Origin: Saprospiraceae bacterium | GTDB lineage: Bacteria; Bacteroidota; Bacteroidia; Chitinophagales; Saprospiraceae | DNA: 27,056 bases | Assembly: GCA_031381715.1 (NCBI GenBank) | Contig: JANMYC010001513.1 | Coordinates: 1-27,056, forward strand | Direction of reading: 5' to 3' | Shown here: one piece after another, positions 629 through 22,604 of the stretch | How the letters are laid out: every line of letters begins with the position of its first letter | Numbering within the stretch: the first letter of the stretch is position 1 | Notes under the pieces: model-generated | The model's database searches: none | Told to the model about the DNA's origin: nothing | What the model saw: the letters and a program-made list of their open reading frames with translations, nothing else | Position numbers and translations under genes: made by a program

Positions 629-2089
629 ATGACGATTTACGATACTTACGAAACCGTTATTGGTCTTGAAATACATGTGCAATTAGCCACTTTGAGTAAA
701 GCTTTTTGCTCCGATAGTGTGAAATTTGGCGGTGAACCGAATACCCAAACGTCGGTGATTTCACTGGCGCACCCAGGCACTTTACCCCGTTTGAATAAAA
801 AGCAAATTGAATATGCTGCCCGCTTGGGTTTTGCTTTAAACAGTGAAATAAGCCGTTTTAGTGCTTTTGATAGAAAAAACTACTTCTACGCCGACCTTCC
901 AAAAGGCTATCAAATTACGCAAGACAAAAAGCCGATTTGTGTAGGCGGTTCGTTAAAAATAATGACTTCAAAAGGGGAGAAGACCATCCGATTGCACCAC
1001 ATCCACATGGAAGAAGATGCCGGAAAATCCATCCACGACCACGACCCCTCAGTATCGTTCATTGATTTGAACCGTGCGGGCACGCCTTTGCTCGAAATAG
1101 TGACTGAACCCGATTTCAGAAGTGGTGAAGAAGTGGATGCATTCATGTCCGCCATGCGCCAATTGGTGCGTTGGCTCGAAGTCAGCGATGGCAATATGGA
1201 AGAAGGCTCAATGCGGTGCGATGTGAATATCTCGGTGCGTAAAAAAGGCACGACTGAATTCGGCACCCGCTGTGAAGTGAAAAATGTGAACTCAATGCGT
1301 TTTGCCCGCAAAGCGATTGAGTTTGAAACAAAACGCCAGATTGATTTGATTGAAAAGGGTGGGGTAGTGCAGCAAAACACCTTGAATTTTGACCCTATAA
1401 CAGGCAAAACTTCGCCATTGCGAAGCAAGGAAAATGCCCATGATTATCGCTATTTTCCTGACCCTGACCTTCCACCAATTATACTCAGTGAAGAATTGAT
1501 TTCTAAAATAAAAGCTGAGATGCCTCAGTTGCCTTGGGAAAGTAAAAAAGAGTTGATTGAAAAATATGGTTTGACGGAGTACGATGCCAATCTTTTAACC
1601 GAAGATATTTCTACGCTTGAAAATTATCTGTATTTTATAAAAGGTTTCAAATCAACGCTTTATAAGCCTGCGGCTAATCTTTTTATAAATAAATTTTTAC
1701 CAGCTATTCATGCTGATGAACATACATTTGTCAAAATTATGCGTCATTTTCACCAATGGCAGGAGATGTTGGAATTGATAGAAAGCGGTCAAATCAGTGC
1801 TTCGGCAGCCTATCAAAAGTTGTACACCACTATTTTGGAGAGCCCCTCAGTATCTACCACTGTTTTGACGATGGCGGAGAAATTAAATCTCATACAATCC
1901 ACTGATTCTGATTTTTTGGCTGATGTCGTGAAAGAAGTCTTAGCTAAAAATCCCGATAAAGTCGCTGAATTTAAGAAAGGTAAAAAAGGGCTTATTGGCT
2001 TTTTCATGGGCGAGGTCATGAAAGCCTCAAAAGGTAAAGCAGAACCGAAATCAACGAATGCTCTGATTTTGAAATTGATTGAAGAGTAA
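629..2089 (+). CDS. gatB: Asp-tRNA(Asn)/Glu-tRNA(Gln) amidotransferase subunit B
   Basis: Motifs VIGLEIHVQL, PGTLPRLN, FDRKNYFYADLPKGYQITQ, HMEEDAGK, DLNRAGTPLLEIVTEPD, EGSMRCDVNISVR and YRYFPDPDLPP, plus a C-terminal Yqey-like tail. Start moved to ATG 629 because the upstream 41 codons are non-homologous and overlap the promoter. Confidence 0.97.
   Translation: MTIYDTYETVIGLEIHVQLATLSKAFCSDSVKFGGEPNTQTSVISLAHPGTLPRLNKKQIEYAARLGFALNSEISRFSAFDRKNYFYADLPKGYQITQDKKPICVGGSLKIMTSKGEKTIRLHHIHMEEDAGKSIHDHDPSVSFIDLNRAGTPLLEIVTEPDFRSGEEVDAFMSAMRQLVRWLEVSDGNMEEGSMRCDVNISVRKKGTTEFGTRCEVKNVNSMRFARKAIEFETKRQIDLIEKGGVVQQNTLNFDPITGKTSPLRSKENAHDYRYFPDPDLPPIILSEELISKIKAEMPQLPWESKKELIEKYGLTEYDANLLTEDISTLENYLYFIKGFKSTLYKPAANLFINKFLPAIHADEHTFVKIMRHFHQWQEMLELIESGQISASAAYQKLYTTILESPSVSTTVLTMAEKLNLIQSTDSDFLADVVKEVLAKNPDKVAEFKKGKKGLIGFFMGEVMKASKGKAEPKSTNALILKLIEE
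1045..1054 (+). repeat. CCCCTCAGTA motif, copy 2 (gatB, GAC CCC TCA GTA = DPSV)
   Basis: Exact match. Confidence 0.95.
1843..1852 (+). repeat. CCCCTCAGTA motif, copy 3 (gatB, AGC CCC TCA GTA = SPSV)
   Basis: Exact match. Confidence 0.95.
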
Positions 2090-2095
2090 CAAAAA

Positions 2096-2133
2096 CGTGA
2101 CATCCCGATTTATCAGGATGCCACGGGTTTTTT
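2096..2133. terminator. Probable bidirectional intrinsic terminator between convergent gatB and the TonB-dependent receptor
   Basis: Stem CGTG-A-CATCC / GGATG-C-CACG, with an A run on the left and a T run on the right. Confidence 0.65.
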
Positions 2134-2134
2134 A

Positions 2135-21950: not shown

Positions 21951-21991
21951 ACCAACTCATTGTAAGTCAAGTATTTAAACATTTGGAAAAA

Positions 21992-22258
21992 ATGGCAGAG
22001 AAAAGTAAAAACCTGCAAGAAATATCGGAAGAGGCTCTTTTAAGTGAGCTGACCGTTCTTGAGACTGACCTTCGCAAGATGGGGGTTGAGCAATCAGTAC
22101 GTGGCATCGCCGATAATAGCCAGTTCAAGAAGATGCGTAAAGAAATTGCACGTGTATACACTGAACTCCGCAAACGCGATTTGTCTGAGTATTCAGCAGA
22201 GGATTTAGTGATGCGTTCTCGTATCCGTGAACGCCGTGCACGCCTTAAAAAAGCTTAA
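21992..22258 (+). CDS. rpmC: 50S ribosomal protein uL29 with C-terminal extension
   Basis: Sits between rplP and rpsQ and carries KKMRKEIARVYTELRKR. ATG 21992 preferred over TTG 21983. Confidence 0.9.
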   Translation: MAEKSKNLQEISEEALLSELTVLETDLRKMGVEQSVRGIADNSQFKKMRKEIARVYTELRKRDLSEYSAEDLVMRSRIRERRARLKKA

Positions 22259-22343
22259 TTCGATAAGTAGTTGATTATAGTTTAGTTTTTAGGGTTTTAA
22301 AATCTCTGGAAGCTGAATACAAAAGCTAAAAGCAATAGAAAAA

Positions 22344-22604
22344 ATGAGTGCTGAAAGAAATCTTAGAAAAACTCGTATTGGAGTTGTTTCAAGTGATGCA
22401 AGAGACAAGACGATAACTGTCAAGGTTGAACGTAAATTGAAACATCCTATTTATGGTAAGTTCGTGAAGCAAACTAAGAAACTCCACGCTCACGATGAAA
22501 CTAATAACGCAGGTGCTGGTGATACTGTCCTCATCATGGAGACAAGACCCCTCAGTAAATTGAAGCGTTGGAGACTCGTGGAAGTCATAGATAGAGCGAA
22601 ATAA
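22344..22604 (+). CDS. rpsQ: 30S ribosomal protein uS17
   Basis: [38 protein letters not shown]. Confidence 0.99.
22548..22557 (+). repeat. CCCCTCAGTA motif, copy 14 (rpsQ, AGA CCC CTC AGT AAA = RPLSK)
   Basis: Exact match inside the conserved ETRPLSK motif. Confidence 0.95.

Follow-up and report, generated by a model that had tools for sequence, protein, structure and literature searches.

A DNA word with hallmarks of an uptake tag saturates genomes of an uncultured Saprospiraceae genus and bends both codons and proteome

Genomes from part of an uncultured genus of Saprospiraceae are saturated with a short DNA word, CCCCTCAGTA, that has nearly all the genomic hallmarks of an uptake tag. The word came to light in a 27,056-nucleotide stretch of one such genome (contig JANMYC010001513.1 of assembly GCA_031381715.1; hereafter the window), where a first-pass annotation had proposed that synonymous codons are bent to spell it wherever the encoded protein allows. 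The window holds 15 copies, against 0.01 expected from dinucleotide-preserving shuffles. The source genome as a whole (G000; 6.84 Mb in 1,609 contigs, 37.7% G+C) holds 4,759 exact copies, or 0.70 per kb, balanced between the strands (2,387 forward and 2,372 reverse). Thousands of exact copies are likewise kept by about twenty sister species, in a pattern that resembles the uptake tags of Neisseria and Haemophilus. The genus inhabits freshwater sediment, and its organisms are known solely as metagenome-assembled genomes. We found no published account of CCCCTCAGTA, the only literature matches being unrelated primer sequences, and our search of the literature on uptake sequences in Bacteroidota or Saprospiraceae returned nothing relevant.

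Among all 10-mers of G000, CCCCTCAGTA ranks first, above the A/T-rich low-complexity words. Its 30 one-off variants sum to just 860 copies, which puts the ratio of exact copies to all one-off variants at 5.5 to 1. The word is non-palindromic, differing from its own reverse complement, and its flanks are selective at three positions only, −1 (C or A), −2 (A) and +10 (T). Information content is zero past one base on either side. Because the flanks show no further conservation, CCCCTCAGTA is not a mobile element, which agrees with the first-pass annotation's view that no inserted element is involved. The run of C preceding TCAGTA varies in length, with 2,042 copies having four, 2,017 five, 464 six, 177 seven, 54 eight and five nine, while runs of three are rare (122). 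The unit that the genome maintains is a nucleotide word consisting of A, then C or A, then CCCCTCAGTA, then T, with a C-run of at least four, present at about 0.7 per kb on both strands.

We then related the copies to genes. Gene calling in G000 was crude, using open reading frames (ORFs) of at least 90 amino acids with overlaps settled by length (5,825 ORFs), and short genes are counted as intergenic because of this threshold. By this measure 3,227 copies are coding and 1,513 intergenic, placing 68% in ORFs, and the coding copies are split between sense (1,609) and antisense (1,618) orientation. They occupy the five stop-free frames, reading as the tripeptides TEG (1,098 copies), PSV (794), LRG (520), PLS (515) and PQY (300); the frame that reads TGA is never used. 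At sites where the neighbouring residue permits the full 10-mer, the word is spelled out at 83% of PLS tripeptides followed by I, M, T, N or K, 80% of PSV, 84% of TEG, 93% of PQY preceded by S, P, T or A, and 91% of LRG preceded by L, I or V. Independent codon usage predicts 0.2–1.5%. Where the neighbour blocks the tenth base, the nine-base core is used at only 2–29% of sites. Codon-pair usage, computed outside motif copies, predicts 0.4–7% for the three core codons, and their observed use is 10–91 times that. Spelling at compatible peptides across the genome therefore departs from ordinary codon and codon-pair frequencies, as the first-pass annotation had supposed from the window.

A motif-free congener, G007, served as a control (1.18 Mb sampled; 674 reciprocal best hits with G000, at a mean amino-acid identity of 58%). 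Of 322 compatible tripeptides in this genome, just 1 has the motif codons. Where a tripeptide is identical in the two genomes and its neighbour is permissive, 36 of 52 sites carry the word in G000, and where the neighbour is conserved as well, 27 of 36 do. By contrast, the word is found at 0 of 38 identical tripeptides with a non-permissive neighbour, and G007 has the motif codons at 0 of the 90 conserved tripeptide sites. Thus, 69–75% of permissive conserved sites have been re-spelled. In rpsQ, the peptide ETRPLSK is invariant across the genus and is spelled CCC CTC AGT A in 11 of 15 motif-bearing genomes, with the remaining four one or two bases off, whereas CCC is used in 0 of 5 motif-free genomes; this copy is purely synonymous bending. 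The pressure is shown to target the DNA word, not a peptide or an RNA.

A separate observation concerns codon usage outside the copies. With motif copies masked, the rare codons of the motif still occur in G000 at about twice their frequency in G007 (GGG, 0.118 versus 0.049; AGG, 0.089 versus 0.037; GAG, 0.256 versus 0.126). These raised frequencies may be left over from copies that have decayed, or may reflect a broader change in codon usage.

Synonymous re-spelling is real but accounts for the smaller part of the coding copies. When 426 of these were aligned to G007, the tripeptide was identical at 36 (8.5%, against a baseline of 28.2% for all tripeptides), differed at one residue in 108, at two in 169 and at three in 91, and lay opposite a gap in 22; about 86% of coding copies sit where the amino acids of G000 and G007 differ. 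The proposal of synonymous bending thus holds at conserved sites that permit the word, but it explains only about 8.5% of coding copies, most of which accompany amino-acid differences. Further, the five motif tripeptides are inflated 2.1–4.4-fold over the expectation from amino-acid composition in G000, against ratios of 0.86–1.33 in G007, an over-representation for which the first-pass annotation had suggested a check. TEG, PQY and PSV are among the top four tripeptides enriched in G000 relative to G007. Because so few copies lie at identical tripeptides and the tripeptides themselves are inflated, we conclude that the proteome is bent as well as the codons. The direction of amino-acid change is not polarised, because the G007 lineage may have lost the word. 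Motif density drops slightly as gene conservation rises (from 0.74 to 0.55 per kb; rho −0.11, p 0.003) and is flat along gene length.

To follow gain and loss of copies, we compared G000 with a sister genome, G009, which is 93.1% identical across 321 kb of aligned DNA. The two share 199 motif sites, with 20 private to G000 and 19 private to G009. G009 retains 91% of the G000 copies unchanged, whereas the figure is 57% for all 10-mer windows and 52% for G+C-matched ones. Selection or drive thus keeps the word conserved well above background. A single substitution separates the two genomes at 25 of the 39 private sites, two to four substitutions at seven, and small gaps at seven, several of which are changes in the length of the C-run; none of the 39 is an insertion of the word with its own flanks. 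Copies therefore arise and decay by point mutation. Both halves of the mechanism put forward in the first-pass annotation, build-up by point mutation and selection or molecular drive acting on the nucleotide word, are borne out by this comparison.

Copies are not placed uniformly with respect to genes. Density in G000 is highest in convergent intergenic regions (1.93 per kb), followed by tandem (1.51) and divergent (0.89) intergenic regions and coding DNA (0.57). Spacing is more even than chance, with a chi-square per degree of freedom of 0.57 over 431 G000 contigs of at least 5 kb and a variance-to-mean ratio of 0.58–0.63 in 5-kb bins in two relatives. Neighbouring copies in G000 form 1,743 pairs of the same orientation and 1,533 of opposite orientation; a contiguous 340 kb from another relative, G033, holds 103 copies in forward and 99 in reverse orientation, with 103 of the 201 neighbouring pairs pointing the same way. 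At short range, within 60 bp, G000 has 63 inverted pairs versus 4 direct pairs. Nearly all of the inverted pairs (61 of 63) lie between genes, several with a T-run after them, making terminator-like hairpins that are putative terminators; about 8% of intergenic copies belong to such pairs. Intergenic copies also carry one-sided A/T tracts at +10 to +13, +19 to +23 and +29 to +33, in 10-bp phase. A run of plus-strand copies in G013 (contig C6) was rejected as a candidate for polarity, as that stretch holds 36 forward and 30 reverse copies. Depleted contigs were likewise considered as a sign of foreign DNA, and no contig proved significantly depleted, the contigs being too short for the test.

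Within the genus, 21 of 33 genomes carry the word. Whole-genome counts in 17 of them range from 2,840 to 6,948 copies each, and the other four were classed as motif-bearing by several copies each in ribosomal-protein loci of about 5.5 kb. The remaining 12 congeners are essentially without the word (1 to 39 copies), and it occurs in none of 12 other families of the order; it is confined to part of one genus. Its presence in frame in conserved genes of 21 of 33 congeners also bears out the earlier contention that it is no assembly artefact. In a tree of ten ribosomal proteins (1,422 columns), the motif-bearing genomes fall into two clades, which have the same word and the same flank preferences. 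One of them is joined, with support of 94/91, by a fast-evolving clade of motif-free genomes, G007 among them, and deeper motif-free lineages lie outside both. An approximately unbiased test did not reject a single motif-bearing clade (p 0.109). The tree and this test therefore fit one gain, or one gain followed by one loss. Near-words in G007 were considered as relics of a lost motif and rejected, since those with one and two mismatches number 9 and 238, against shuffled-word medians of 24 and 469.

Candidate dialects of the word were also rejected. The top GC-containing words in G007 and in 72 loci from other Saprospiraceae and related Bacteroidota proved to be tandem heptamers or longer repeats and not any dispersed word: the leading GC-containing 10–12-mers of G007 (contigs C1, C2, C3 and C5) come from heptamer arrays such as GAAATCC, AAATCGTAAATC and GGTAAAT repeats, and locus L001 carries GGATAAC repeats. 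Another candidate, TTCCGGAA (117 copies in G007), has a count wholly accounted for by its sub-words.

Two side observations touch the boundary between motif-bearing and motif-free genomes. Among the latter, G034 and G015 hold 15 and 39 copies, with two copies on each of the G034 contigs C121, C311 and C346; this suggests mis-binned contigs or DNA from motif-bearing relatives. The palindromic hexamer TCCGGA is strongly avoided in motif-bearing genomes (156 occurrences versus 838 expected from composition in G000, 13 versus 60 in G009, and 0 versus 52 in 340 kb of G033) and over-represented in motif-free G007 (637 versus 150 expected), a pattern that looks like restriction-site avoidance along the same clade boundary as the motif.

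We tentatively favour the reading that the word belongs to a DNA-uptake-sequence-like system, a reading to which we give not quite even chances. Under such a system, cells would favour fragments bearing the word, either in taking up DNA or in keeping and recombining it, and mutations that create or perfect a copy would spread through the population by transformation and homologous recombination, a form of molecular drive also seen with the uptake sequences of Neisseriaceae and Pasteurellaceae. Coding DNA accommodates the word by synonymous re-spelling at about 70% of pre-existing compatible peptides and, far more often, by amino-acid replacement at poorly conserved positions. It is possible, and we advance this with somewhat greater reserve, that CCCCTCAGTA genuinely serves to mark DNA as self for import, in a lineage of Bacteroidota where no type IV pilus or secretin genes were detected, and that it has arisen or been lost within one genus. 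An inner-membrane module would be available for import. ComEC is present in 32 of 33 genomes of the genus, DprA is present in G000, and a membrane-anchored ComEA-like protein with four helix-hairpin-helix (HhH) repeats is also found in 32 of 33. In G000 this protein has 392 amino acids, a membrane anchor and four tandem HhH_3 (ComEA-type) repeats (G000:C500:296-1474). In most genomes of the genus where one contig holds both, its gene lies about 2 kb or less from that of ComEC (for example G039:C223, G008:C176 and G033:C3), but G007 has them on separate contigs.

To our knowledge, sequence-tagged DNA uptake has been shown experimentally in only two proteobacterial families, and the word shares features with the tags of each. 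The uptake signal sequence (USS) of Pasteurellaceae combines a 9-bp core, AAGTGCGGT, with two AT tracts in helical phase; Findlay and Redfield described in 2009 how it has co-evolved with the proteome (PMC2817400). Like USS, CCCCTCAGTA is a short non-palindromic core that occurs about once per kb on both strands and mostly in genes, with one-sided A/T tracts in 10-bp phase. The tripeptides it encodes are inflated, the stop-codon frame is avoided, and its copies favour poorly conserved residues and genes, as has been reported for copies of USS and of the DNA uptake sequence (DUS) of Neisseriaceae (PMC2817400). Unlike USS, it is a different word in a different phylum, the Bacteroidota; it inflates tripeptides 2.1–4.4-fold, against about 2-fold in USS and DUS genomes (PMC2817400); no secretin or pilus ATPase was found alongside it; it appears within a single genus, and no dialect was found in the sister lineages, of which one motif-free genome, G007, was sampled in depth; and an uptake preference is here a proposal. 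DUS, which comprises GCCGTCTGAA and its dialects, has the minor pilin ComP as its receptor (PMC3630211). The resemblance to DUS lies in a word of 10–12 nucleotides with thousands of exact copies and a clade-limited distribution, and in intergenic inverted pairs that form terminator-like hairpins. The differences are that 68% of copies here lie in ORFs of at least 90 amino acids, against about 35% for DUS (PMC2817400), that only about 8% of intergenic copies are in inverted pairs, and that no dialects were seen. With no type IV pilus system found, there is no reason to expect a receptor like ComP. Within the same phylum, competition assays show that the naturally competent Riemerella columbina favours its own DNA, and the candidate signals found there were low-complexity A/T words only (PMC7965970).

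Several observations weigh against an uptake system. None of the 33 genomes of the genus yielded a member of the secretin family PF00263, and the pilus/type II ATPase family PF00437 had no match over the family cut-off in G000; the canonical pilus route, by which Proteobacteria read DUS and USS, is therefore missing, and since neither component was found, the receptor and the outer-membrane route would both have to be new. ComEC, DprA and the ComEA-like protein do not discriminate, because they are also present in motif-free congeners, and the idea of a clade-specific ComEA-like receptor was rejected, as the four-repeat HhH protein occurs in motif-free genomes too. ComEC, DprA and ComEA-like proteins also occur in many bacteria that are not competent. 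No comparable alternative dialect word was found in the 1.18 Mb of G007, the only motif-free genome sampled in depth. Finally, most features that support uptake are equally expected of a protein-binding site selected in place, the exceptions being the inverted terminator pairs and the A/T tracts in 10-bp phase.

Such a site is the substance of a serious rival, which we regard as rather unlikely: that the word is the binding or modification site of a chromosomal protein, for example a nucleoid organiser or one linked to a methyltransferase, and is selected in place, so that selection on each copy, not DNA import, would keep it abundant and evenly spaced. The model is the highly iterated palindrome HIP1 of cyanobacteria, GCGATCGC, an 8-bp palindrome linked to orphan methyltransferases (PMC5861425, PMC4390886), which is hyperabundant within and between genes and conserved above neutral expectation without a link to uptake (PMC5861425). 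In the Saprospiraceae, conservation well above background, more-even-than-chance spacing and the failure to find pilus machinery all fit such a site, and the 10-bp-phased A/T tracts suggest a protein that bends or wraps DNA. However, CCCCTCAGTA is asymmetric, 10–12 bp long and flanked by one-sided phased A/T tracts, whereas HIP1 and its variants are palindromic, and terminator-like inverted pairs and enrichment at gene 3′ ends are typical of DUS and USS. Our analysis yielded no candidate binding protein, and it is hard to explain why the organisation of the chromosome should call for 4,759 exact copies when the price is thousands of altered amino acids.

We consider it improbable that the word is a functionless by-product of sequence-specific biased repair or gene conversion, in which, for example, a nickase or a short-patch repair enzyme would correct near-matches to the exact word. 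The excess of exact copies over all one-off variants, gain and loss through single substitutions, and the abrupt appearance of the word within one genus all fit such a bias, but even spacing, enrichment at gene 3′ ends and phased A/T tracts are unexpected under it. No candidate enzyme emerged, and known short-patch repair biases yield just modest skews in word frequency. We give almost no credence to an ordinary cause, whether a small mobile or repetitive extragenic palindromic (REP)-like repeat, selection on a peptide or an RNA, a polar signal of the Chi or FtsK-orienting polar sequence (KOPS) type, or an assembly artefact; these have nothing in their favour but the bare abundance of the word. 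Unlike REP repeats or miniature inverted-repeat transposable elements, the word is not part of any longer conserved unit, its flanks being unconserved past one base on each side; most copies lie in frame in ORFs, and sister genomes differ by point substitutions and not insertions. Five frames, both strands and five unrelated tripeptides speak against selection on a peptide or an RNA. Unlike polar Chi or KOPS words, CCCCTCAGTA shows no strand bias with replication direction in G033 or G000, and an artefact would not recur in frame within the conserved genes of many genomes assembled independently.

In the window itself, every site listed in the first-pass annotation is present as described there, including the one-base-off copy (Table 1). 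Nine of the window copies are coding and six intergenic, five of the latter between ribosomal-protein genes. Sites that cannot complete the word use other codons, CCT TTA TCG for PLSA at 2920 and CCG TTA TCA for PLSP at 15546. Going by gene order, ORFs 16210..16518 and 16866..17489 are presumably rpsJ and rplC, and ORF 17574..18203 is presumably rplD.

Table 1. Positions of CCCCTCAGTA and of one near-copy in the 27,056-nucleotide window
Feature	Position	Strand	Context
Motif copy	453..462	-	Within 5′-partial ORF 1..522 (plus strand); antisense GAT ACT GAG GGG (DTEG)
Motif copy, gatB	1045..1054	+	GAC CCC TCA GTA (DPSV; site 1046)
Motif copy, gatB	1843..1852	+	AGC CCC TCA GTA (SPSV; site 1844)
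Motif copy, 796-aa 'receptor' gene (2135..4525, minus)	3002..3011	-	ACC CCC TCA GTA (TPSV; site 3010)
Motif copy, 796-aa 'receptor' gene (2135..4525, minus)	3718..3727	-	CCC CTC AGT AAA (GPLSK; site 3727)
Motif copy, 1097-aa sensor gene (4610..7903)	4991..5000	+	CCC CTC AGT ATA (DPLSI)
One-base-off copy, sensor gene	7412..7421	+	CCT CTC AGT A; codons CCT CTC AGT AAA (IPLSK)
Intergenic copy	10279..10288	-	Begins 9 nt past stop codon of ORF 9767..10270
Motif copy, polyprenyl diphosphate synthase gene (12152..13132, minus)	12211..12220	-	CCC CTC AGT ATA (TPLSI)
Motif copy, hybrid histidine kinase gene (13983..15938)	14868..14877	+	CCC CTC AGT AGT (TPLSS)
Intergenic copy	16650..16659	+	Between ORF 16210..16518 and ORF 16866..17489
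Intergenic copy	17537..17546	-	Between ORF 16866..17489 and ORF 17574..18203
Intergenic copy	19878..19887	+	Between rpsS (19565..19834) and rplV (19974..20333)
Intergenic copy	20339..20348	+	Begins 6 nt past rplV stop codon, upstream of rpsC
Motif copy, rpsQ	22548..22557	+	CCC CTC AGT AAA at invariant ETRPLSK
Intergenic copy	24475..24484	+	Between rpsN (24077..24346) and rpsH (24517..24921)

The longest stretch of the window without the motif, 5.3 kb from 5001 to 10278, contains most of the sensor gene, a LytTR regulator, a hydrolase and a small ORF. It has the lowest G+C in the window (0.32–0.34) and may be younger DNA. Elsewhere in the window, the rpsC (S3) ORF at 20430-21356 encodes 308 amino acids, of which the family model spans residues 1-209 only; the product has about 100 additional C-terminal residues beyond that model.

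The pressure on this word amounts to a quantified override of coding by a demand at the level of DNA: about 70% of conserved peptides with a permissive neighbour have been re-spelled, and the G000 proteome has gained roughly 2,900 additional tripeptides. For the clade's metagenome-assembled genomes, the word is a sharp marker for binning and contamination checks. The switch from about 5,000 copies to none inside one genus also makes for an unusually clean contrast in which to look for whatever reads the word. If the word does mark DNA for uptake, setting the 21 motif-bearing genomes against the 12 motif-free ones could name a new sequence-specific DNA receptor and, with it, a new uptake route.

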